This document shows positions 5,453 to 21,308 of a DNA stretch of 64,000 nt, one piece after another (within the stretch, counting starts at the first letter, position 1; every line of letters begins with the position of its first letter). The position numbers were made by a program, and so were the translations under genes. The notes under the pieces were generated by a model. The model was not told the DNA's origin. It saw nothing but the letters and a program-made list of their open reading frames with translations, and did not search any database. Source of the DNA: Candidatus Omnitrophota bacterium. GTDB taxonomy: Bacteria > Omnitrophota > Gorgyraeia > Tantalellales > Tantalellaceae. The stretch is taken from assembly GCA_015231405.1 (NCBI GenBank), contig JADGBR010000013.1, forward strand, positions 7,222 to 71,221, written 5' to 3'.

Positions 5453-6502
5453 ATGTATAAAACCAGGATAGTCGCTACGTTGGGTCCGGCCAGCGCGGAT
5501 TATTCCGTCATCCGGAAAATGACGCTTGCCGGCATGGATGTGGCGAGGCTTAATTTCTCGCACGGCAAAGAGATCGAACACGAGAATAAGATACGGATCA
5601 TCCGTAAGATAAATGATAAATATCGACGGCATATACGCATACTGGGTGATCTTGAAGGCTTTCGCATAAGGATAGGATATCTGAAAGAGCCCGGTTTCAG
5701 GGTTCTTAGGAGATCGGAGCGGGTAACGTTCTTTTTCGGGGAGGACAAAGGATCTCGGTGCGAAATACCGTTCGACTATGACGGGGATTTTAGGACTATT
5801 GCCGCCGGAAAAATGATATACGCGGATGACGGGAACATTGTTTTCAAGGTGCTTAAGAGTTCCGCAAAAAAAGTTATCGCGGAAACCGTAGTTGGCGGGA
5901 CGCTTAAAGAGAGAAAAGGGATCAATATCCCGGAAGCGAAGTTCCCGGGTTCCGGGGTAACGGAAAAGGACGCAAAGGATATAGAGTTCTCTCTGAGGCA
6001 CGGTGTCGATCATATAGCCCAGTCCTTCGTGAGGAGCAAAAAAGATATATTGCGTGTTAGGGAGCTTTTTGGAGGCCGCGGACCCGGTAAAGGCCTTGTG
6101 GCGAAGATAGAGACAAGAGAGGCCATCCGGGATATAGACGGGATAATCGAAGTTTCCGACGGGATAATGATAGCGCGCGGAGATATGGGCGTAGCGGTCC
6201 CGATAAGCATGGTGCCGGTGATACAAAAAGAGATCATCAGGAAATGTAATTACCGCAAGAGATATGTTATAACCGCGACCCAGATGCTGGAGAGTATGAC
6301 GGAACATAGCCGCCCAACGAGGGCCGAAGTAACGGACGTGGCGAACGCGATATTGGACGGGACCGACATGGTCATGTTGTCGGGAGAAACGGCGGTCGGG
6401 AAATACCCGGTCGAGGCGATAAGGACAATGAACGATATTATCGGCGTAGCCGAGGGATATAAAAAAAACAGGGCCGAGACGGTAAAAAGGATATTGGCCT
6501 AA
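5453..6502 (+). CDS. pyk: pyruvate kinase, short form lacking C-terminal regulatory domain
   Basis: [11 protein letters not shown]...LNFSHG start and [16 protein letters not shown] motif; only 349 aa. Confidence 0.8.
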
Positions 6503-6521
6503 AAAAAAGAGGAGAGGGGAT

Positions 6522-6959
6522 ATGATAATGAGATATTTGTTAGTCGCGGTACTTGTTCTAAGCGTTGCGGGGTGCGCCACTCCCAGGAAAAAAGAGACGC
6601 CTAAGTCGGACGTCCAGGTCCTGAAGGAAGAGGTCGGCTCGCTCAAGCAGGAAATGGCTGAAAAGGAAAAAAGGATACAGGAGCTCGAGACCACTAAAGG
6701 TGCCGGGTATTCCGATTACAGCGCCGGCTCAGAAGAGACAAGGACGAGGTCCTATGGTTCAGGTTCCAGCCAGGCTCCGCAGACTGCCAAGAACATCCAG
6801 AAAGCGCTTAAGAATGCGGGTTTTTACAGTGGCGAGATAGACGGTAAGATCGGCAAAGGGACGAGGAAAGCCGTACGGGAATTCCAGGGGTCAGAGGGAT
6901 TAAAAGTCGACGGTATCGTCGGAAAAAAGACCTGGTCCAGACTCCAGTCGTATTTATAA
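6522..6959 (+). CDS. lipoprotein with C-terminal peptidoglycan-binding domain
   Basis: Lipobox LSVAGC; coiled-coil middle; C-terminal PG_binding_1-like LKNAGFYSGEIDGKIGKGTRKAVREFQ. Confidence 0.6.
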   Translation: MIMRYLLVAVLVLSVAGCATPRKKETPKSDVQVLKEEVGSLKQEMAEKEKRIQELETTKGAGYSDYSAGSEETRTRSYGSGSSQAPQTAKNIQKALKNAGFYSGEIDGKIGKGTRKAVREFQGSEGLKVDGIVGKKTWSRLQSYL

Positions 6960-6981
6960 AGGGTCATTGCATTGATCATGA

Positions 6982-7024
6982 GGGTGGGGATGAGTTGTGG
7001 CGAACAACTCATCCCGGTCCCCAC
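6982..7024. terminator. hairpin (terminator-like) downstream of lipoprotein gene
   Basis: ggtggggatgagttg..caactcatcccggtccccac imperfect stem-loop; no U-tract. Confidence 0.35.
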
Positions 7025-7031
7025 AACATGA

Positions 7032-7661
7032 GTGGGGAATAAAATGGGAATCATATCTCTTCTTTTCCACGATCCGGCGGCGTTCCTCATACTTGTGATA
7101 CCGCTTCTGTATTCCGTGATAGCCCACGAAACGGCGCATGGATGGGCGGCGTATCTTTTCGGCGACGATACGGCGAAACGCTCCGGGAGGCTGTCGATCA
7201 ACCCTCTCAGGCACATCGATCCCGTCGGGACAATGGCGCTTGTATTCGTAGGATTCGGTTGGGCCCGCCCCGTGCCGGTCGATTACTCAAAGCTAAGGCC
7301 TTTCAGGCTGGGGCTCATCTGCGTTTCCTCGGCGGGAATATTCGCCAACATACTTATAGCTGCCGGAGCTTTGTACGTTATAAAACTCGAACCCTTGTGG
7401 ATGACGAAAACGCCGGCCGTCATTTTGTCGGTCATGGCAAGGATAAACATTGTACTTGGGGCGTTTAACCTGATACCCATACCTCCGCTCGACGGATCAA
7501 AGATCCTTTTCGGTTTTCTTCCGTCCGCGGCGCAGGATAAATTCATGAGACTGGAACGGTACGGTTTTCCGCTGCTCTTAGTCTTGCTTATCACGGGGGC
7601 TATTGAGCCCCTCATCAAAGTGATTGAGAACGTGATCCTTCATATGTTGCTCGTAAGGTAG
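7032..7661 (+). CDS. M50 family (site-2 protease-like) zinc metalloprotease
   Basis: HETAH zinc motif in TM helix, LSINPLRHIDPVGT motif, multiple TM segments. Confidence 0.7.
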   Translation: MGNKMGIISLLFHDPAAFLILVIPLLYSVIAHETAHGWAAYLFGDDTAKRSGRLSINPLRHIDPVGTMALVFVGFGWARPVPVDYSKLRPFRLGLICVSSAGIFANILIAAGALYVIKLEPLWMTKTPAVILSVMARINIVLGAFNLIPIPPLDGSKILFGFLPSAAQDKFMRLERYGFPLLLVLLITGAIEPLIKVIENVILHMLLVR

Positions 7662-7702
7662 TGCTACTCCCTTTCGGCTGTAGCCGATGACGAATACTAA
7701 AA

Positions 7703-7814
7703 GTGTCAGGCCTCCCCATTGGACATTTTGAGTTAAAGATTAACGCTAATTTGAATATCGGGGTGTAAAAGAGGGACATTAACTCTGGATTTGTCCAATG
7801 GGGAGGCCTGACAC
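7703..7814. repeat. perfect 23-bp inverted repeat with 66-nt AT-rich spacer
   Basis: gtgtcaggcctccccattggaca (7703-7725) is the exact reverse complement of 7792-7814. Confidence 0.6.
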
Positions 7815-7852
7815 CGTTGCTTCTTTTGCCCGGTATGTCTTACTACGCCGCA

Positions 7853-7963
7853 ATGACGAGCCGCCAGGCGTTGGATATCAGGACGGGGAGATCTTCGGTC
7901 AGGAGGTCCATGGCGGGTATGGCAAGCTGGGACTTAGCGCCTGTTCTGAATGAAGCAGCCTAA
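7853..7963 (-). pseudogene. orphan diverged copy of the 3' end (last ~36 codons) of the giant gene 8801-14806
   Basis: About 85% nt identity to 8815-8910; minus strand encodes AASFRTGAKSQLAIPAMDLLTEDLPVLISNAWRLVIAA* versus giant C-terminus ..RTGSKSQLALPAMALLSEDLPGLISAAWRLLISA*; in-frame TAG immediately upstream. Confidence 0.55.
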
Positions 7964-8067
7964 AATAATGGTACATGAGACGCAGCGAGGTGTGGCATAA
8001 TGTTGATCGGGTTATTTAAATGTTTATTGATACGAGATCTTCTCCCGGGAAGCAAGGAGGATGCGAT

Positions 8068-8784
8068 ATGGAATTATTTCGGAACATTTGTGGCTTAGCT
8101 ACTAAAACAATTTCTGATAGATATGATATTTCTATGTTGCAGCAGTTGGAGAAAGTACTGAATCGATCCGGTGTTAGTTTTTTCGGGTCGCGCGAATTCC
8201 TTGATTTTGGATGCGGTACGGGCAGGCTCGCGCAGCTTTTTAGCGGATATATGCCTGACGCGAAATTATACGGTTGTGACGTGAAATCATATCTTGTTAA
8301 ACGGTGCGCGCGCCTGGTCCCGAGGGGCAACTTCTTCGTTAATGGTGTCGTTCCTCCGCTCGACTTGGAGGATGGGAGTGTTGATATGGTCTTTGCGTAT
8401 AGTGTATTTACTCATTTGAAGGAAGACGCGCATATTCAATGGCTGAGGGAGTTTTCCCGAGTATTAAAAAAAGGCGGGTATGCCGTTTTAACCACTCATG
8501 GATATGAGTGTCTTAAACGCATGCGGAAATTCAGCCCCGAAAAGCTGAAGAAATATCAAATAGAGGACTTGGATAATTTCATGGTGCGCAAAGAGCAATA
8601 TTACTGGGTACAGAATCTCCGGAAGGAACCGGATTACGGTCTGGCTGTGATCACTGACAAATATATCAGAGATAATTGGATGAAAGTGTCCGGGATGGAA
8701 TTAAAGGGGTATGAACCCGCCGCGGTAGAGGCATATCCTGAGGGATGCCAGGACTTGGTGATATTGATCAAGGGCAATGGTTAA
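8068..8784 (+). CDS. class I SAM-dependent methyltransferase
   Basis: Motif I LDFGCGTGRL; AT-rich relative to flanks; RBS ggagga before ATG 8068 (ORF also open from 8020). Confidence 0.7.
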   Translation: MELFRNICGLATKTISDRYDISMLQQLEKVLNRSGVSFFGSREFLDFGCGTGRLAQLFSGYMPDAKLYGCDVKSYLVKRCARLVPRGNFFVNGVVPPLDLEDGSVDMVFAYSVFTHLKEDAHIQWLREFSRVLKKGGYAVLTTHGYECLKRMRKFSPEKLKKYQIEDLDNFMVRKEQYYWVQNLRKEPDYGLAVITDKYIRDNWMKVSGMELKGYEPAAVEAYPEGCQDLVILIKGNG

Positions 8785-8800
8785 GCGTGGCCCGGTACCA

Positions 8801-11800
8801 TTAAGCTGAGATAAGCAGGCGCCAGGCGGCGGATATCAGGCCGGGGAGGTCTTCGGATAGGAGGGCCATGGCGGGCAGGGCCAACTGGGACTTCGAGCCT
8901 GTCCGGATGTTATTCAGCCATATTTTCATGATCCCGCAAAGGGTCCACATATCGCGTCCGGGTGTCTTTTCGACCGGGACAGAAAAAGATATTTTATCGT
9001 TGGCTTCATTCCGCAAGCCGTCCCGAAGGTCCTCTGCGGCGCCCGCTTCCAGGGTATCAGTAACGACCAGCAGGTATTCGTTCATTTGCGGATCCATTCC
9101 CGCACAAGCCATCTCGCGCATTACCACCGCCCTGTGAAGTTTGTTGCCCGGGTCAAGCGTTATCCCCTGTCGAGACATGAAAGCCATGACCTCGGCTATT
9201 CTGCCATCGGTGATCGAGAGATCGATCTTTATCCCGTCAAGCCCCAAAGCAAGCCGAAGGCGGTCTTTATCGAGCGCTGTTAAGGGCAGGAGATCGTCCT
9301 CTTGGCCGACGACAAATATCTGCAGGGATATGGGGACCCGAGATCGCGCGAAATATTTTTTGACGGCGCCCAGGGCCAGGGGGATATCCGGCATGGTCTT
9401 AAAAACGGAGACAGGGAGGCATAGACGTAATTTAACCGGGTGTTTTCTTTCCAGATCTTCAGAGAAATCCTGTTTCTGTTCGATTATGGAGCTTTCCAGT
9501 TCCGTTTTACGCGCCGCTTCCGCGAAAGCGTCCGCGGCTTTACCGAAAGCATCGGTCTCGCGGGCATCGACCGTAGCGCGGAATAGCGCCGCTTCGTGAG
9601 TTCCGGACGGAGTAACAATGCCCGGGCCTGGGACTCCCGGTGTTGTGTCCGGGGGTTGTTCCGTTACCGGCCTAAGTGACCGTGTTCCCGCGTGCGGTCT
9701 TCGTGTGCCGGGGATGTCGAATTGTGTCAGGCGGGAACGCCCGGTTCTTTCTCTCTCCATTGGCGGGTTAACGCCAGCGGTTTTTTCGCTTGGAGCCTCT
9801 CCGGATAAGGCGGGTTGAGCGTCGGATATCGCCGGGGCTACTTTTTTAACTGCTTCTTCGGCGAGTTGTTCCAGTGCTTCCATGGAATCCGTGTCTAACA
9901 CCGGTTTACCGTTGACCACATGGATGGCGTACCCTTTTTCCTCGGTAAGCTGTTTTTCGAGCAATTCGTCAAGAGATGTGAACCTGGAGCGGGCGATCTC
10001 GGACAGTAAGTGGTCGACTGCAGCGGCGGATCCGCCCGGCAAAGCCGATAATATACCCTTTAGCTCGCCGGCTATTGTTCCCAGATCTTCGAAAAGTATC
10101 CCGTCCTCGCGTAGAGGATAGAGCCAGCCTTTTTCCCGCATGACGCCGTAAACCTGGCTTGGATCGAGACCGGTTCGGGCGAAAATATCCTTCGGTATGA
10201 CTTTCAGCCTCTCGGAAGACGACACAAGGGTTATGAGCTCGACGTCCCTGGTCTGGCCTATTCCTATCAGGCGGTCGGCGTCGTCAAAATTCATCCAGGG
10301 TCTCGATAGTCTTACCATTGTGGATATATGGAAATCAGCGCCCGGAGCCTGGAATAGGTTCAGCGACTGGCCGAGGAGCCATGTTGTCCCGATAAGGATC
10401 TTCGGAGACATGTCCTTGCGGAAGGCGTCTATGCCCGAGAGGCGGTCCCCTAGCGAAACAGCTTGATTGAGCCCGATAGCCGCGCTGGAACCTGATCTGT
10501 CCAGGTATTTACGATTGTACCTCTCGACGAGTATCTCTATTTCCTCGACGAAATCAACAAGCACAACGACCTTGCCGTTATCTGCGAGACGGTCCTCGAT
10601 TATTTTGTCGAGTTCAAGCACTTTCGGGCAGATTTCCTCCTCGTCCGGGGACCCGTCGGCTTTTTTCGGCAATTTCCCTTCGGGGAGGATAAGCCTTAAG
10701 TCGACGTTCGCTCGGCGCTCGAGGTCGAAACGCCTGAAAATATGAGCGGCAATTTCGGCCTTGTCTTCCCGGGCTTCGCTAGCTTTCCAGGCCGGGAAAT
10801 CGCTGCGCTGCATGGCGATAGTCCTTTCCTGGGCTCTTGACATTGATACGAAACGGGTCTCGGAGATAACGTCGGTAAGCTCCGGGAGTACCTGTTTTCG
10901 TGTCCAGCGGACCATGACGGGCTCGATCGCGAGGAAAAGACGGTCGTTATCCATGCGCTCGAGATATTCGCGCCTGACGTTGTCCGGTGGGACTGTTTCC
11001 CGGGAAGGCGACGGCCCGGCGGTTGGGTGCTCCCGGGGATCATAATCTTTCCGCATCCATAAGAGCGGCTCTATTACATCCGTAGGCCTTTTTACGACCG
11101 GACGCGCGCTGACGCCGATCCGGTATTTTGACGGGATGCCGACAATAACGGGCGCGCGGACAGTCTTATCGCCTTTACGAAGATTTTCCACTTCGTCTAT
11201 TATGTGAGCGTCCGGGGCGAATCGTTTGATGCCGTCTTCTGCGGCGACGATGGCTTCGTAATTGGCGATGAGGATGACCTTCTGGCCGGAAGCGGCAAGG
11301 TTCGCGGCGCGGGACGCCTGCTCGGCGATATTCCCCAGGGAGCTGTCTATAACGTATATTTGATATCCGAGAGCAGGGTCCAGCCTGTCCGCCAGCTCGT
11401 TCGCCCATTCGTATTTGGCCTGGTTCGGCACGGTGACCAGAAGACGGCTGACGTCGTAGGCGCCGTCTTCGGATCTTACATTGAGGGCGGAGAGAGCCGC
11501 GGTTATGGTCTTTCCGGTACGGGCGTCGCTCGCGAACCAGGCGCATCGTTCTTTGGGATCTTCCAGTGTATTTACCGCCTGGGCGACGCTGTAGCGTTGG
11601 TAGGGCATTAGCGGTGCGACTTTGCCGTTATAGCCGCGCGGAACAAAGCCGTGCCATAGCTCGAATTCTTTAAGGATCTCATCCAGTATCTTTTTGGTGA
11701 GCGAGTTCCTGCCGGCAGAGACGGACTCGCGGCTTAACGGCGATAAAGCAGTATTTGCGGAACTGGTCCCGGCTTTCAGCAGAGCGCCGTAGAAGAGGCC

Positions 11801-14800
11801 CCGCCAAAACCGTTTAAGCGCTTTTTCCTTCCGGAGGGCGCTGGAGAGGCCCAGCTCTTCCACTATCCCGGCAAGCATTTTTGATAGGCTGCCGGAAAAT
11901 TCGTCGGACGATATCACCGGGCTTGTAATTTTAGCCTGGTCGGCGATTTCGCGGTAACTGACGGTGAGGATATCGTTAATAGCCTTCTTAGTGAAACGGT
12001 CCCCGAAAAAATAGATGAGCATTTCTCCGAGGGTGCCCTTATCGCACGCGGTCATTTTAATGAAGTCGATGAGGCCGACGCGGCGCATGATCCTGCCAAG
12101 TTCGCCTTCCGCGGCGACGGCCCTGAGGCGGTCTTTTATGACGTTGTCCGGAGCGAGGCTCGAGAAGACCCCGAGAGTGAACCACATCCTCAGTTTTGAA
12201 AGCAGCTTTTTCCGCGCGGTCGATACCGTTTTTAACCGCTCTTCCCAGAGCACGCGGACCGGTTTGTCGGCGTCCGGACCGGGGGCGGACGACTCGTAAT
12301 AAGAGCCGGTGATACCAGCTACATCTTTACCGTTAAGCACATCGGAGAGGATAGCCCTTTGCATGGGATCCTTGAGCCTTATCGCCAGCCATGAATCCAG
12401 CTTAAGGTCTATGACCCGTTCGGGCCTCGGATGGGAACGCCCCGGCCTGTAAGGTTCCGGCAAAAGATCGCTCGTGGATCTGCCCGTGGTAGCAGGGGAT
12501 AATTCCTCTGCGAGGCTGTCCTTATCGGGAAACCCCGCCGTCCTCCGTATTCTTTGCTTAAGTTCCGGGGCTCCGTTCGGTATCGCTTTAAAAAACTCAA
12601 CTGCCTTTATAAGAGCGGTTCGCTCAAGCTTCAGGACATCATCTTCGGGGATCATTAGTAGAGAGCTTATCTCGCCGGACGTCATGAAAGACATATAACT
12701 TCCGGTCTCGATAGGGCCGTATCTAAGGAAAAGTACGCGGGCTTCGGCCGCGGTGAGTTCACGGCATAGACGAGTGAGTTCAAGAGATGTTGCTCTGCTC
12801 GTTACAACGTTTGACGGTATGGGCGCCGAGTCGAGTTCCTGAAGGTCCGCAAAGAGTTCCGCTAAAGCGGCCTCGTTGTGGGGCTTTCTGAGTGCCGCTT
12901 CGGCCTTGAGCTTTATCTGGCTGACACGGGTGGCGGATACGTCTTTGGCAAACTTTTTGCCGATGGTGTCCTGGGGCAACACCTCGAAAGCATCCAGCCC
13001 ATAAGAATGCCGTATCGTTACCCGCTGCTGATAGGTCAATGTTTTGAGGAGCGAGGAGATGCGGGCCGATGTCTTTTCCAGGAGCTTGTCGCGTTCCAGG
13101 GATGCTTGTATGTTATGACCCGAAAGGGAAGCGAGATCCGGGTCGTTCGCGAAGGCATCTTCCAAAGATCCGGCCGAGCGATCAAGGATAATATTTACGA
13201 CAGCCAAAATCTCGGGCGTGGTTTTTAGGAGAGTTTCCCGAATGGCTTCTTCGGGGATTTTGTCGCTTTCGGATAGTTTCAGAGCGATAGGGCCTTCGTA
13301 ATAATCGCCGGGTTCCCTTGTGAGCCTGAGGATCGATGCGAGGATCGTCCCCCAGAGCCTCCCCGAGATATCGCGGGAGCCATCGTCGGCTAAATGATGC
13401 GGGAAGCTTGCCCATTTGGAGGCGATAAGCTTTTCTATGAGTCCGCTCCAAATTTTTCCGTTGTAATACTGGCCGAATGACTTAGGGTTTGGGTCTTTCG
13501 GGTCCGTAATCATCGCATCAAGAGTCCGATATCCTTCAAGGATAGCCTCATCGCGGAAATCGTCTATCGAGTGGTCGGTGTATTTTATCCCGACAAAGGT
13601 ATTGAAAAAATACCGGACCGCGTAGTATGCATCCTCTCCGATCCGAGTGAACGCGGGGGCCGATCTTTCCCCGAGGACCTTAATGGCCTTTTTCCTTATG
13701 ATGACGTGGGAGGAGCGGACAAGCTTAAGGAGGGCCTGATGGCTGAGCCTGCTAAAGTCCTTTTCAAGGAGGCGTTCGCTCTTTCCGGCTTCGACCAGGC
13801 GCGGCGAGTGTTTGATAAGCCGCCGCTGAATGGCATCCACGGTTTTTCTGCGCGCGATGTCCTCGAAGAAAGACCTGCCGAAATAACTGTTAGAACTTTT
13901 GGAGGAGTGCGGCCGGGTTATCATGTAAGTGACGGAGAGGAACCTTTGCTCGGCCGGGCGCAAATTCCGCGCTGAGACGTATTTCCGGTCGACCAGATAT
14001 TTAAGGGTGAACGCCGTCGCGGCTATTTTTCTTACCAGGAGTTTTTCTGCTTCACCGCCGGCTTTAAGCCCGAAAAATTTATCTTGCGGAGCCATGTCCT
14101 CTCCGGGGAATTTGATATTCCCGGCGAGGCCCGATCTTATCTTTTCGTCTTCCGTAAGGTCCGCGAGGAGAGTCGAGGCCGCGCCGCTATTATTATAGGC
14201 GCCACGCGCTATCAAGAGGTCCTTGTATGCCCGGAGCATCCAGGGGATCAGGATACGTTTACTGAGCCTGACGTAATTAGTCCCGTTCTTTTCTTCCATC
14301 CCAATGAGAAGCGTTACAAAATCCGCATAGGTTACTTCACTGACAAGGCCTAAAGGATCGAGGTCGAGATCGGGCACGGTTATGTATTCCGGGGTGTCTT
14401 TACCGGGAACGATAAAGACCTTGACGCCGTTCTTTACCATAAATTCATGATATAAGCCCAGAGGGTTGGCATAGCTGACATGTTTTCTGAGCATGGAATA
14501 GCGAAGGTCCAGATCACGCCCCGGATCATCGATACCCGACCAGACTGCCAAAGTAGCATTATTCGCAGTTTGAGCCAGCCCGGGACCTCCGGAAAACCCA
14601 TCCAAAATATAAACCGCGGCAATGATCGTAGGAAGGAGCCTTCTAAATAACATCGTGGTCTGAAAAAACATAAGCGGTATTGTATCAGAAAGCAGGGATA
14701 AACCAAACTTTATTACGCTTAACGTATTGACTACGCCGAGAATCAGCAGTAGCCTGCGACAGCGCAGAGAGTACGGCAGAATGATCGCGGGGAAAATATT

Positions 14801-14806
14801 TATCAA
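8801..14806 (-). CDS. giant multidomain protein: SNF2-family (SF2) ATPase core preceded by two sigma-70 region-4-like HTH modules
   Basis: 2001-codon ORF. SNF2 motifs LMPYQRY..ASDARTGKTITAALSAL (I), HIIDEVENLRKG (II), GVSARPVVKRPTDVIEPL (III), ..LGQSLNLFQA..GIGQTRDVELITL (V/VI). Sigma r4-like LTYQQRVTIRHSYGLD...ATRVSQIKLKAEAALRK and LTAAEARVLFLRYGP...LKLERTALIKAV. Start uncertain (TTG at 14806; ATGs at codons 46 and 52). Confidence 0.75.
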   Translation of the reverse strand: MINIFPAIILPYSLRCRRLLLILGVVNTLSVIKFGLSLLSDTIPLMFFQTTMLFRRLLPTIIAAVYILDGFSGGPGLAQTANNATLAVWSGIDDPGRDLDLRYSMLRKHVSYANPLGLYHEFMVKNGVKVFIVPGKDTPEYITVPDLDLDPLGLVSEVTYADFVTLLIGMEEKNGTNYVRLSKRILIPWMLRAYKDLLIARGAYNNSGAASTLLADLTEDEKIRSGLAGNIKFPGEDMAPQDKFFGLKAGGEAEKLLVRKIAATAFTLKYLVDRKYVSARNLRPAEQRFLSVTYMITRPHSSKSSNSYFGRSFFEDIARRKTVDAIQRRLIKHSPRLVEAGKSERLLEKDFSRLSHQALLKLVRSSHVIIRKKAIKVLGERSAPAFTRIGEDAYYAVRYFFNTFVGIKYTDHSIDDFRDEAILEGYRTLDAMITDPKDPNPKSFGQYYNGKIWSGLIEKLIASKWASFPHHLADDGSRDISGRLWGTILASILRLTREPGDYYEGPIALKLSESDKIPEEAIRETLLKTTPEILAVVNIILDRSAGSLEDAFANDPDLASLSGHNIQASLERDKLLEKTSARISSLLKTLTYQQRVTIRHSYGLDAFEVLPQDTIGKKFAKDVSATRVSQIKLKAEAALRKPHNEAALAELFADLQELDSAPIPSNVVTSRATSLELTRLCRELTAAEARVLFLRYGPIETGSYMSFMTSGEISSLLMIPEDDVLKLERTALIKAVEFFKAIPNGAPELKQRIRRTAGFPDKDSLAEELSPATTGRSTSDLLPEPYRPGRSHPRPERVIDLKLDSWLAIRLKDPMQRAILSDVLNGKDVAGITGSYYESSAPGPDADKPVRVLWEERLKTVSTARKKLLSKLRMWFTLGVFSSLAPDNVIKDRLRAVAAEGELGRIMRRVGLIDFIKMTACDKGTLGEMLIYFFGDRFTKKAINDILTVSYREIADQAKITSPVISSDEFSGSLSKMLAGIVEELGLSSALRKEKALKRFWRGLFYGALLKAGTSSANTALSPLSRESVSAGRNSLTKKILDEILKEFELWHGFVPRGYNGKVAPLMPYQRYSVAQAVNTLEDPKERCAWFASDARTGKTITAALSALNVRSEDGAYDVSRLLVTVPNQAKYEWANELADRLDPALGYQIYVIDSSLGNIAEQASRAANLAASGQKVILIANYEAIVAAEDGIKRFAPDAHIIDEVENLRKGDKTVRAPVIVGIPSKYRIGVSARPVVKRPTDVIEPLLWMRKDYDPREHPTAGPSPSRETVPPDNVRREYLERMDNDRLFLAIEPVMVRWTRKQVLPELTDVISETRFVSMSRAQERTIAMQRSDFPAWKASEAREDKAEIAAHIFRRFDLERRANVDLRLILPEGKLPKKADGSPDEEEICPKVLELDKIIEDRLADNGKVVVLVDFVEEIEILVERYNRKYLDRSGSSAAIGLNQAVSLGDRLSGIDAFRKDMSPKILIGTTWLLGQSLNLFQAPGADFHISTMVRLSRPWMNFDDADRLIGIGQTRDVELITLVSSSERLKVIPKDIFARTGLDPSQVYGVMREKGWLYPLREDGILFEDLGTIAGELKGILSALPGGSAAAVDHLLSEIARSRFTSLDELLEKQLTEEKGYAIHVVNGKPVLDTDSMEALEQLAEEAVKKVAPAISDAQPALSGEAPSEKTAGVNPPMERERTGRSRLTQFDIPGTRRPHAGTRSLRPVTEQPPDTTPGVPGPGIVTPSGTHEAALFRATVDARETDAFGKAADAFAEAARKTELESSIIEQKQDFSEDLERKHPVKLRLCLPVSVFKTMPDIPLALGAVKKYFARSRVPISLQIFVVGQEDDLLPLTALDKDRLRLALGLDGIKIDLSITDGRIAEVMAFMSRQGITLDPGNKLHRAVVMREMACAGMDPQMNEYLLVVTDTLEAGAAEDLRDGLRNEANDKISFSVPVEKTPGRDMWTLCGIMKIWLNNIRTGSKSQLALPAMALLSEDLPGLISAAWRLLISA

Positions 14807-14937
14807 TTCACTGATTTTTTATGTTGAAGAGTGTCCCTTTTGGGACTGTCCCCTTGGCACCTTCAAGAAACGGTAACAGGTTGCGGCATCGGCGCAAGGC
14901 GTACGGTAAATGAGTATGGCAGTATTCCTGTATTAAG

Positions 14938-14966
14938 TTGACAAACCAGCCGAGTGCATGCATACT
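14938..14966 (+). promoter_or_regulatory. sigma70-like promoter candidate (TTGACA-17-CATACT) for the PC4-like gene, divergent from giant gene
   Basis: TTGACA at 14938-14943, CATACT 17 nt downstream, strong RBS aaggagga before ATG 15012. Confidence 0.35.
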
Positions 14967-15011
14967 TTGAGAGTGAAACTGGAGGGTAAATACTAACTTT
15001 AAGGAGGAGAA

Positions 15012-15245
15012 ATGCCTTACAATGCGGAACTTGATGAAAACATGTTCTCAAAAAGCTGGGAATCGGAAACCGACAGACTGACTGTCAGTATCTACTCATA
15101 CAATCACGGCCAGAAAAAACTTCAGATATCCCGGGAAAGCAAATCCCCTCAGGGCGACCTCAAATTCGCCAAGCTCGGAAGGATGACGAAGGATGAGATA
15201 ACAGCGATCATTCCACTCATACAGGAAGCGATCGGTAATATGTGA
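15012..15245 (+). CDS. PC4-like / YdbC-like ssDNA-binding small protein
   Basis: 77 aa; SKSWESETDRLTVSIYSYNHGQKKLQISRE...LKFAKLGRMTKDE resembles bacterial PC4 (transcriptional coactivator p15) fold family; strong RBS. Confidence 0.45.
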   Translation: MPYNAELDENMFSKSWESETDRLTVSIYSYNHGQKKLQISRESKSPQGDLKFAKLGRMTKDEITAIIPLIQEAIGNM

Positions 15246-15259
15246 GACGCGCTGACAAA

Positions 15260-15988
15260 ATGAGTTCCGTCGCGGACGAAGTCAGGGGAGAATTAAGACT
15301 CCACGCCAGCGAGGAAAAAGCGACGTTGCTCGGAAGGTTCTTCAAAACTGGTCCGGGCGATTACGGTGAGGGGGACGTTTTCATAGGCGTTAAAGTCCCC
15401 GAAACAAGGCGGATAGCCAAGAGATATTTTAAGGCGATCAGGCAGGGCGGGGTCCGGGCGCTCCTCGCCTCGCGCATCCACGAAGAGAGGCTTGCGGCCC
15501 TTATCATGATGGTCCTGCAATTCGAGAAGGGAAGCCCCGAGGGAAAAGAGGATATATACCGTCTATACCTGGCAAGTACCCGCCGCATAAACAATTGGGA
15601 CCTGGTCGACATTTCAGCGGGACAGATCGTCGGGGGATATCTGTTCGACAGGGATCGGGAGATCCTTTATAGATTGGCCTCCTCGGATAATTTATGGGAG
15701 CGCAGAATAGCGGTCATCGCCACTTTTTACTTTATCAGGAAGGGTCAGTACGGCGATACGCTTGGGATATCCGAAAAGCTTCTCGGCGACAGAGAGGACC
15801 TGATACACAAAGCCACCGGGTGGATGCTTCGCGAAACCGGCAAAAGGGATAAGGGAACCCTCGTAAAGTTCATCAAAAAAAACTATAAACAAATGCCGCG
15901 AACAATGCTAAGATATGCGATAGAACTGTTCCCGGAGAAAGAACGACAGATGTATCTTCGCGGGAGATTTGGACCTAAAGGATCATAA
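15260..15988 (+). CDS. DNA alkylation repair protein (AlkD-like HEAT-repeat glycosylase family)
   Basis: FGVKVPETRRIAKRYF...NNWDLVDIS..WMLRE pattern typical of pfam DNA_alkylation; alternative GTG start 15242. Confidence 0.7.
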   Translation: MSSVADEVRGELRLHASEEKATLLGRFFKTGPGDYGEGDVFIGVKVPETRRIAKRYFKAIRQGGVRALLASRIHEERLAALIMMVLQFEKGSPEGKEDIYRLYLASTRRINNWDLVDISAGQIVGGYLFDRDREILYRLASSDNLWERRIAVIATFYFIRKGQYGDTLGISEKLLGDREDLIHKATGWMLRETGKRDKGTLVKFIKKNYKQMPRTMLRYAIELFPEKERQMYLRGRFGPKGS

Positions 15989-19377: not shown

Positions 19378-20787
19378 TTATTCAACGTCCTTGAACTTAA
19401 CGGATCCGATCATGTCAACAGCAAGCTTTTCCTCTTCGGCCAAATTGCCTTTGGGCACTTCCGGATCCGGCGTCTCTCCAATGGGAAAAGTATAACCGAA
19501 ATCCGCAATCAACATTTTATCCTTAACCGGGGTGTAATAAATTTTCCACACGTAACCTTCATTTTTGACAGATGATACCGGATCACTCGCGACAAGAACA
19601 CACTCACCCCATGAATGATCTCTTAAGTTTACGACCTTGATCGATCTTGTCTCAAAAACGCCGTGTTCTTGTTCCAATGACTTCCTGATCAATTCGTTTT
19701 TTTCAAGATTCTCATAACGAATTTTCTTGCCGATATTCTGGTCTGATAGATCTACAGCGCTGAGCTCAAGGCCCAGATCTTTTAGGGGGTGTGAATACAA
19801 TCTCACGGCTATAGTCTGCCCTTTTTGCCTTTTAAAATGAACTAGCGTGTACTCTAATCGCGGAGTTGTTTGCTTGAGCACCCATCTTCCGCTAGGCCTA
19901 TCAAGAGTCACTCCTTCAGGAAAAACTATGGGCGGGCTTATCGTTGCCAGTACCTTTTGGGCAAAAGAATATCCTGTTTTGGAATAAATAAATCTGCCGA
20001 TCTGCGAGATCCAAATACCGCTTAGGGCAATAATCGCTATTATCAAGGCCGCTGCTAATAAGCACCCGGAACGGGATCTGTTGATCGCTTCCGGATCATT
20101 ACCTGGTTCTGTTGCTTTGATCTCCTTTAGCTTGTGATACAACAACACTTGTCCCGCAATTAAAAATGGCATAACAAGCGCCTGAAAGACATTGACTAAA
20201 AATCCGGCTAACTTAGGATGTGTCTTGGTTAATGCTAAAGCTGGAATTGGCGGCAGGAGAAAAGGGAACGAAATGATGGCAAGAAAGCAGCACGTTTTCC
20301 AGAAAAAACCCTTTATGAGTTGACTGCTCATTTTTAATGAGCCGTTCCCTTTACGCCCCTCGATAATTACCGCCAAATCCGACAAACAAAAGATTATTCC
20401 CCAATAAATGCCGGGGATAACAAAAAGCAGCAGACCTGCCAACGATATAAGAAAACAGATAGAAACTACCCCGATCACTCGCCAATATTTCCCCTTAGTT
20501 GCCGTAAAACAATCGGCTACAGCTGTCTCTTCGTTGCGGTATCTCTTTGATGCCGCAATAACCAAAGCGATATAAGCCCATATTCCGATAAAAAGGCTTG
20601 CAGAAGATAAAATAACGCTCAAACTATTGGGAGAGATAGTTTCAAGTAATGCAGGTATTACACCGAGAAGGGAGATCCCAAGAAAAAGACGAAGGTTATT
20701 CCTGAATAGCGTGATCGTTCCTATCAAAAAAACTCTTACATTAAATTTCTGATCGGCCGGCTGACGAGGACCAATGTCTGTATTCAT
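19378..20787 (-). CDS. hypothetical polytopic membrane protein with C-terminal soluble domain (AT-rich gene)
   Basis: About 8 predicted TM helices; GC clearly below flanks; no recognisable catalytic motif. Confidence 0.5.
   Translation of the reverse strand: MNTDIGPRQPADQKFNVRVFLIGTITLFRNNLRLFLGISLLGVIPALLETISPNSLSVILSSASLFIGIWAYIALVIAASKRYRNEETAVADCFTATKGKYWRVIGVVSICFLISLAGLLLFVIPGIYWGIIFCLSDLAVIIEGRKGNGSLKMSSQLIKGFFWKTCCFLAIISFPFLLPPIPALALTKTHPKLAGFLVNVFQALVMPFLIAGQVLLYHKLKEIKATEPGNDPEAINRSRSGCLLAAALIIAIIALSGIWISQIGRFIYSKTGYSFAQKVLATISPPIVFPEGVTLDRPSGRWVLKQTTPRLEYTLVHFKRQKGQTIAVRLYSHPLKDLGLELSAVDLSDQNIGKKIRYENLEKNELIRKSLEQEHGVFETRSIKVVNLRDHSWGECVLVASDPVSSVKNEGYVWKIYYTPVKDKMLIADFGYTFPIGETPDPEVPKGNLAEEEKLAVDMIGSVKFKDVE

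Positions 20788-21218: not shown

Positions 21219-21308
<90 letters not shown>

Follow-up and report, generated by a model that had tools for sequence, protein, structure and literature searches.

The end of a giant gene was analyzed in a window of 64,000 nucleotides (the whole stretch of contig DNA presented above; all positions are given in its numbering), which stems from a metagenome-assembled Candidatus Omnitrophica genome. The gene encodes an SNF2-type protein of 1950 amino acids. The end of its C-terminal domain, here called the tail, is present twice: one copy (copy B) is fused to the gene, the other (copy A) is an orphan, and a methyltransferase gene lies between the two. Very probably, the methyltransferase gene is an insertion and copy A is the displaced former end of the giant gene, whatever the route has been. 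We favor the explanation that foreign DNA with a tail end of its own was inserted under the guidance of homology, and we estimate its probability at roughly 0.55. The locus contains the following parts:

5453-6502, plus strand: pyruvate kinase gene
6522-6959, plus strand: gene for a PG_binding_1 protein
7044-7661, plus strand: gene for an M50 peptidase (Pfam Peptidase_M50), a conserved neighbor, convergent with the giant gene
7652-7815, strand not assigned: block with a perfect inverted repeat of 23 nucleotides, which lies in a non-coding stretch
7828-7949, minus strand: copy A, the orphan tail end, 34-35 codons with the stop codon TAG (7843-7845) and a trailer
7958-7960, minus strand: in-frame TAG upstream of the orphan, deduced from the translation
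7950-8067, plus strand: leader of the cargo, 118 nucleotides, with the ribosome-binding site AAGGAGG at 8054-8060
8068-8784, plus strand: intact gene for a class I S-adenosylmethionine (SAM)-dependent methyltransferase of 238 amino acids (Pfam Methyltransf_11)
8790-8907, minus strand: copy B, the tail end fused to the giant gene, with a trailer, the stop codon TAA (8801-8803), and the last 34-35 codons
8801-14653, minus strand: giant gene, 1950 amino acids, with an N-terminal "head" domain (about 13745-14563), the SNF2-related domain (10763-11536), and the tail (8804-9505)
15242-15988, plus strand: DNA alkylation repair gene

The repeat units 7828-7949 and 8790-8907 have the same orientation and surround an insert of 840 nucleotides (7950-8789), which is composed of the leader, the methyltransferase gene, and five further nucleotides. 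Each unit contains the last 34-35 codons of the giant gene, the stop codon, and a trailer of about 15 nucleotides. The homology runs through both trailers, which share GCCCGGTA (7828-7835 and 8790-8797) and differ in length by four nucleotides. The blastn analysis aligned 7859-7944 with 8817-8902 (83.7% identity across 86 nucleotides, E 2e-21), and the tblastn analysis yielded 36 amino acids with 72% identity (E 2e-13). A third copy was detected with neither program within the window. At an offset of 958, the best ungapped stretch of 96 nucleotides had 77 matches, compared to 51 for the runner-up within 7000-15500, and, thus, the repeat is far above chance. An earlier interpretation of the DNA from its letters alone, in the following called the sequence-only reading, had reported an identity of about 85% between 7857-7952 and 8815-8910. 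The repeat as such was confirmed by the blastn comparison of the two regions, while the figure had to be corrected to 78% (75/96), 84% being reached in the core of 86 nucleotides only. Similarly, the reported protein identity of 76% was correct for the truly aligned codons (26/34), but not the reported span of 36 residues.

The edge of the homology is sharp at 7949/7950, and upstream of 7949 no similarity to the giant gene was found by local alignment. On the minus strand, the orphan is translated to ...F*AASFRTGAKSQLAIPAMDLLTEDLPVLISNAWRLVIAA, and the giant gene ends with ...NNIRTGSKSQLALPAMALLSEDLPGLISAAWRLLISA. The stop codon TAG of the orphan (7843-7845) is followed by TAA. The orphan is not part of a longer open reading frame, because an in-frame TAG is present at 7958-7960; its own stop codon and the upstream TAG had already been recognized in the sequence-only reading. 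The invariant Trp and the terminal Ala of the tail domain are kept in both copies. The distance between the stop codons of the methyltransferase gene and the giant gene is 16 nucleotides (8785-8800), and not 17 as had been stated earlier.

To find the empty site, a related genome without the methyltransferase gene was sought. When the last 1200 residues of the giant protein were used in a full HMMER scan, a protein of 98 amino acids (P0119) was found, which is 58% identical to the end of the giant protein. It is encoded on L006, a metagenome contig of 1966 bp from the JGI sample 3300042261. The 3'-part of the pyruvate kinase gene, the PG_binding gene, and the M50 gene of L006 have a DNA identity of 85-86% to positions 6122-7651 of the window. 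For the M50 gene, the identity is 85.6% on the nucleotide level and 88.6% on the amino acid level, and the synonymous (dS) and non-synonymous (dN) divergences of the flanking genes are 0.58-0.68 and 0.05, respectively. The last 119 codons of the giant gene of the window and of L006 align codon for codon. In L006, the tail converges directly on the M50 gene, the final 14 nucleotides of which overlap the end of the tail, and between the two there is no methyltransferase gene, no orphan copy, and no hairpin. Judging from this arrangement, L006 is the empty site.

The junction in L006, CATATGTTGCTTCTTACGCGG in the plus orientation of the window, recurs in the window as GTTGCTTCTT (7816-7825), where it is joined to the trailer of copy A. 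As this sequence corresponds to the M50/tail junction of L006 and copy A directly adjoins it, copy A occupies the ancestral position, and, therefore, the methyltransferase gene together with copy B is the addition. A second full-length paralog of the giant gene, which the sequence-only reading had named as the contrary case, was not seen. Scans with the M50 peptidase yielded 160 loci, of which about 100 were Omnitrophota-like, with 54-64% identity. In none of the 160 loci did a tail, a giant gene, or a methyltransferase gene adjoin the M50 gene, and, thus, only the close relative shares the synteny. Locus scans based on the tail gave no match in genome, metagenome, or viral collections; a broad tail alignment was too diverse for use in scanning.

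In the scenario that we infer, a foreign methyltransferase gene would have entered between the convergent giant SNF2-type gene and the M50 gene, and the join would have occurred inside the last approximately 120 bp of the giant gene. The incoming DNA would have carried the methyltransferase gene linked to its own diverged giant-gene end, i.e., copy B with 34-35 codons, the stop codon, and the trailer. Recombination would have attached the imported end to the giant gene, and the resident end, copy A, would have been moved about 960 bp downstream and have become a dead fragment. The giant protein would still end correctly, because copy B retains the two invariant residues. Our first choice for the route would be a one-sided homologous crossover in the giant gene combined with an illegitimate joint at the resident codon -36, and a close second would be a single crossover of a circle of about 1 kb with the tail end and the methyltransferase gene. 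In its divergence, the putative donor would correspond to a different species of the same genus, and a dedicated recombinase would not be involved.

The differences between the two copies were used to analyze their history. Across 34 codons, 23 bases differ, 12 of them at third and three at second positions, including double synonymous changes in an Arg codon (AGA/CGG) and a Leu codon (CTT/TTG). The eight amino acid differences (A/S twice, I/L, T/S, V/L, D/A, V/G, and N/A) are mostly conservative replacements. The Nei-Gojobori method yielded a dS of 0.65, a dN of 0.16, and a dN/dS ratio of 0.25, and at least 26 identical residues were retained in only 0.1% of the trials with random substitution (P 0.001). 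In spite of a base divergence of 22%, the dead copy A has neither an indel nor an internal stop codon across the 34 codons. With L006 as an outgroup, four synonymous and two non-synonymous changes were specific for copy A, and two synonymous and six non-synonymous changes for copy B. The live copy, thus, has more non-synonymous changes of its own than the dead one, whereas a decay of copy A in place would predict the opposite. These numbers are small, but they favor, without proving it, the view that the two ends diverged as working coding sequences in separate lineages and were joined later. In its size, the dS between the copies resembles that of the flanking genes in the comparison of the window with L006, and, therefore, the donor would be at roughly a species-to-genus distance.

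The same data bear on the possibility that the repeat arose by duplication in place, i.e., by an insertion at a staggered break or by a tandem duplication and a subsequent deletion, with the copies diverging afterwards. In this case, no donor that links a tail end to the methyltransferase gene would be needed. In addition, about 11 random changes in the dead copy and about 12 synonymous changes in the live copy would yield approximately the eight observed amino acid differences, and both copies share the GCCCGGTA trailer and six amino acid states that are missing from L006. However, the fraction of non-synonymous own changes is lower in the dead copy A (2/6) than in the live copy B (6/8), and the absence of indels and stop codons is difficult to reconcile with the high divergence. 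Furthermore, we know of no common insertion mechanism that generates a target duplication of about 120 bp, which also counts against duplication in place. Taken together, this origin is regarded as unlikely.

The divergence from L006 is not uniform along the locus. Four-fold degenerate sites in codons for the same amino acid differ at 35% in the M50 and pyruvate kinase genes, but at 69% in the 84 codons upstream of copy B (8908-9157 of the window versus 3-254 of L006; Fisher P 0.002). The 3'-region of the giant gene is near synonymous saturation versus L006. For the last 34 codons, the values are 43-44% for either copy versus L006 and 25% for copy A versus copy B. The contrast of 69% and 35% argues that the body of the giant gene has a history unlike that of its neighbors, or else it may have evolved unusually fast. 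The pattern in the body of the gene would fit an allelic replacement in one of the two lineages, and it leaves open a larger allelic replacement instead of a clean integration at codon -36. The last 34 codons show no excess, which argues against a single very distant donor for copy B together with a long stretch upstream. Changes specific for copy B tended to lie in the 5'-part and changes specific for copy A in the 3'-part of the repeat, but this possible crossover mosaic was not significant (P about 0.1, a rough Fisher estimate).

Several points weigh against the insertion of foreign DNA with its own tail end. The comparison is based on a single close relative, in which only 119 codons of the giant gene are covered, and the upstream limit of the imported DNA cannot be placed. 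If the donor had supplied the whole 3'-part of the gene, nearly equal four-fold differences would be expected, whereas the values are 0.25 between the copies and 0.69 upstream. The tests for selection and polarity have little power with 34 codons, and neutral decay in copy A together with synonymous change in copy B also produces about eight amino acid differences. The arrangement postulated for the donor, i.e., a giant gene directly followed by this methyltransferase gene, was found nowhere in the collections searched, and no microhomology was evident by inspection at the 7949/7950 joint. Lastly, the sequence is a metagenome-assembled contig. This source, together with tail ends that differ by approximately a species-level distance, could point to an assembly chimera of two co-occurring congeneric populations. 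However, a k-mer assembler would be unable to join through the copies, because they share no exact run of more than 10 nucleotides. In addition, copy A is cut at codon -36 against unique sequence, which would not result from a simple mis-join of intact loci. A chimera is, thus, very unlikely.

Domains of integrases, transposases, or recombinases were searched for with Pfam. None was present in the open reading frames of at least 90 amino acids across the 64 kb, nor in two shorter ones that were scanned, in agreement with the absence of an integrase noted previously. The longest identical runs between the copies have a length of 9-10 nucleotides (GGATATCAGG, CCATGGCGGG, CGCCAGGCG, and CTGGGACTT), and none of the four is marked by flanking dyad symmetry. 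An integron cassette was rejected: no attC hairpin was found, and the DNA folds of both copies had z-scores of -0.12 to +1.28 on both strands. A transposon or miniature inverted-repeat transposable element was rejected as well, as there are no convincing terminal inverted repeats and the flanking duplication is diverged and about 120 nucleotides long.

These results are also relevant for the mechanism proposed in the sequence-only reading, an island-like insertion into the 3'-end of a gene. The insertion and the displaced end were borne out by L006, but the site-specific mechanism was not, since there is no integrase within the 64 kb, the identical runs do not exceed 10 nucleotides, and the cargo is a single gene. 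A specific version of it would be a remnant or a minimal form of an integrative element of the type of e14 or phage 21 at icd, with a surrogate 3'-end in the attachment site. The integrase would have been lost since then or would act in trans, and the exchange would have taken place inside the last 36 codons. The architecture, with direct repeats of the 3'-end and a displaced C-terminal pseudogene, resembles icd-e14-icdC, the differences between the copies are largely synonymous or conservative, and an empty site exists in a relative. In addition, an inverted repeat of nine nucleotides is present near the ends of the cargo, TAATGGTAC at 7966-7974 and GTACCATTA at 8795-8803, for which a rough estimate gave a chance of about 0.01. 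However, this inverted repeat is at odds with the geometry of the direct repeat: TAATGGTAC lies 16 nucleotides inside one end of the insert, and GTACCATTA takes in the stop codon of the giant gene. Excisionase domains are also absent from the window, and no dyad-symmetric core stands out. As the cargo of 840 nucleotides is almost completely filled by one gene, a deletion would need to have spared both repeats and removed everything else. Searches of viral contigs and plasmids did not reveal the cassette, and the plasmid collection contained no match to 7662-8067. Such an element is, therefore, considered an improbable origin.

The closest described case is nevertheless e14 or phage 21 at icd, which has the same architecture and consequences. 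In Escherichia coli, e14 is inserted in the 3'-end of icd, which is completed by a slightly different incoming end, and icdC remains beyond the insert as a C-terminal pseudogene; a recombination between icd and icdC would delete e14 and leave a chimeric functional gene (PMC13626634, citing Hill et al. 1989). In contrast to the present locus, with 840 nucleotides, one gene, and neither a recombinase nor a recognizable core, e14 is a prophage of 15 kb with its own integrase and excision. The locus, thus, works like the e14 case without belonging to the same class. The copies are also much more diverged than those in icd/e14, with 22% of the bases differing and a dS of 0.65.

A second comparison is homology-facilitated illegitimate recombination in natural transformation, which, reportedly in the work of de Vries and Wackernagel, combines one homologous anchor with one illegitimate joint. 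It needs no mobile-element machinery, and the joint may be accompanied by short duplications or deletions. It is said to have been demonstrated experimentally in Acinetobacter and Streptococcus, and not as a natural scar of the present form. A cargo of a single gene and the absence of a recombinase suit this process, in contrast to the absence of an evident microhomology at the joint. Another mechanistic relative is seen in polymorphic toxin loci: displaced 3'-fragments are present just downstream of the genes cdiA and rhs, where a new 3'-module has arrived by recombination. As in the present case, the displaced 3'-fragment of a very large gene lies downstream. However, the displaced part in these systems is a variable toxin domain with an immunity gene and the homology is upstream, whereas here the conserved extreme end is repeated and a convergent methyltransferase gene lies between the copies. 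Lastly, integron cassettes resemble the locus in having one packed open reading frame of about 0.8-1 kb and repeats of about 120 nucleotides with about 80% identity. Here the repeats are coding sequence of the neighboring gene with an ortholog in the empty site, however, and neither attC-like hairpins nor IntI are present.

The cargo itself was characterized next to its relatives. The gene at 8068-8784 is intact and, as had been recognized in the sequence-only reading, an AT-rich class I SAM-dependent methyltransferase gene. The protein matched Methyltransf_11 with 64.3 bits (cut-off 21.2) and also the related families Methyltransf_25/12. Its glycine-rich SAM motif LDFGCGTG aligns with that of the best homolog (P0003), which is 49% identical and can be aligned from end to end. 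This alignment and the ribosome-binding site back the start codon at 8068. About 50 relatives have identities of 38-49%, and all four relatives that were looked up lie inside sugar or polysaccharide clusters, with a short-chain dehydrogenase gene on one side and a 2-hydroxyacid dehydrogenase or cytidylyltransferase gene on the other. In contrast, the methyltransferase gene of the window stands alone. Its GC content is 0.45, its GC content at third codon positions is 0.49, compared to about 0.60-0.70 in most genes of the window, and only three of 49 genes have a more atypical codon usage. The leader (7950-8067) has no similarity to the giant gene or L006 and no match to the sigma-70 consensus. 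Composition and family context fit a foreign origin of the gene. By analogy to the glycan clusters of its relatives, the substrate might be a sugar or a small molecule rather than DNA.

An origin from the glycan cluster of the window was rejected, because the enzyme is unrelated to the four other class I methyltransferases encoded there. A defense pair of an SNF2 protein and a methyltransferase, similar to DISARM or BREX, was also rejected. PADLOC had no match for the giant gene, for the methyltransferase it matched only the generic SAM-binding part of one model, and L006, the close relative, lacks the methyltransferase gene. Exact-sequence look-ups of the methyltransferase (238 and 216 amino acids), the giant protein, and the M50 peptidase returned no record.

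An NCBI entry of 1950 amino acids, on a contig of 72.3 kb, has the same sequence as the giant protein. A word-index search with the whole protein or its last 420 amino acids retrieved only the protein itself or gave no match. Residues 1091-1348 matched the SNF2-related ATPase domain PF00176 with 40.7 bits (cut-off 24.9), and SNF2 relatives have 35-49% identity across about 670 residues. The contigs of the nearest of these, P0099 and P0100, stop at the gene. Residues 586-641 (about 12884-13051) have a weak similarity to a sigma-70 region-4-like helix-turn-helix (18 bits, sub-threshold), and the same Pfam family is on record for P0099. This similarity suggests putative DNA-binding modules upstream of the SNF2 motor.

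The last approximately 215 residues of the giant protein are a separate domain, which was found at the extreme C-terminus of about 50 otherwise different proteins of 218-5163 amino acids. All named members of the family are from Omnitrophota. About 25 of the tail proteins have an N-terminal head of about 300 amino acids in common with the giant protein, which itself matched the profile hidden Markov models of head and tail with E values of 1.8e-17 and 3e-52. The proteins were provisionally grouped as head-cargo-tail proteins (set P0123-P0224). Their middle parts are, among others, PEP/pyruvate-binding, glutamate dehydrogenase, histidine-kinase-type ATPase, methyltransferase, and YcaO-like domains. 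Sequence comparison revealed no match of head or tail to Pfam or a solved structure. The structural model of the tail (mean confidence score pLDDT 84) is a generic alpha/beta sandwich without a specific structural neighbor. A text search in a recent paper on long proteins of Omnitrophota yielded no description of the terminal domains, and, apparently, the tail domain and the head-tail grouping are undescribed.

The end of the tail is always W..L..A-COOH. As it is kept in all cases, including both copies, an insertion at this site would require that a complete end is provided in order to be tolerated. Five SNF2-type relatives of the giant protein without the tail domain (P0099, P0104, P0105, P0108, and P0109) end with motifs of small residues such as ..IQSA, ..AQSA, ..ASQA, ..AISA, and ..ALSA. 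These ends recall the ..ISA/..AAA of the tail, and they could be a common C-terminal signal, e.g., a degradation or sorting tag.

Since the tail is a module on many different proteins and the orphan retains the invariant Trp and the terminal Ala, copy A might be a silent spare end in a programmed cassette for swapping the C-terminus, the alternative raised in the sequence-only reading. However, the orphan lacks a usable start codon and has an in-frame stop codon upstream, there is only one spare, and its differences from the live end are mainly conservative. Recombination signals, an invertase, and a recombinase are lacking, and the copies are direct and not inverted. A swap via direct repeats would merely result in the loss of the methyltransferase gene. 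Furthermore, a spare end is absent from L006, and no orphan tail was found beside another member of the family. A spare-tail cassette is, thus, extremely improbable.

Directly downstream of another head-tail gene (P0232, 2323 amino acids), an array of toxin-antitoxin and abortive-infection modules was found, i.e., AbiEii, MNT/HepT, ParE, BrnT twice, and PemK (locus L171, 17274-22752; also L172 and L173). No orphan tail is present there. Accessory DNA may generally land on the 3'-side of head-tail genes.

A further difference between the window and L006 is the block 7652-7815, which is absent from L006 and has GTTGCT on either side (7646-7651 and 7816-7821). The block contains a perfect inverted repeat of 23 nucleotides (7703-7725 and 7792-7814) with a loop of 66 nucleotides and T-rich runs on both sides. 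The predicted RNA fold has an energy of -58.7 kcal/mol and a z-score of -7.3. The inverted repeat has no second copy in the window, and it is missing from 168 retrieved loci. According to the comparison with L006, the block is a second, separate insertion. It altered the C-terminus of the M50 peptidase, which is HMLLVR* in the window and HMLLLTRI* in L006. Possible interpretations of the block are a small palindromic mobile element or a bidirectional terminator that was acquired. An Rfam search with the inverted repeat gave only spurious matches to microRNA hairpins.

Two other regions of the window should be mentioned. An open reading frame of 469 amino acids (19378-20787) has the lowest GC content (0.43) and the most atypical codon usage of the window, has no Pfam match, and is about 430 nucleotides apart from the only tRNA gene (tRNA-Ser, CGA; 21219-21308). 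This reading frame, too, may be a foreign insertion. Glycan-biosynthesis genes occupy a very large region from about 21500 to 63900, which encodes epimerases, many glycosyltransferases, three PMT_2 paralogs, B12-radical SAM and SPASM enzymes, aminotransferases, an asparagine synthase, and the four further class I methyltransferases.

Taken together, the locus is a clean natural case, complete with an empty site, in which a gene was gained inside the coding end of an essential-looking domain and the recipient gene was not destroyed. The gain occurred without visible mobile-element machinery, and it left a recombination scar that is clear, albeit of a rather ordinary kind. In uncultivated phyla like Omnitrophota, horizontal transfer can be dated and traced with the help of such scars. 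The geometry of expression was also changed: the transcript of the giant gene now faces the methyltransferase gene, with the short distance of 16 nucleotides between the stop codons, and the strong hairpin just past the original end at copy A is now 1 kb away from the stop codon of the giant gene. The more interesting by-product is that the duplicated piece ends an apparently undescribed C-terminal domain, which, together with the head, frames many enzymes among the long proteins of Omnitrophota. It is conceivable, though quite doubtful, that the methyltransferase gene belongs to a minimal recombinase-free cassette that homes to the tail-coding ends of head-cargo-tail genes via a surrogate tail end or, more broadly, that the head- and tail-coding ends are recombination anchors that capture new DNA. 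If this were true, capture at such anchors would help to explain why so many unrelated enzymes are found between the same two terminal domains.

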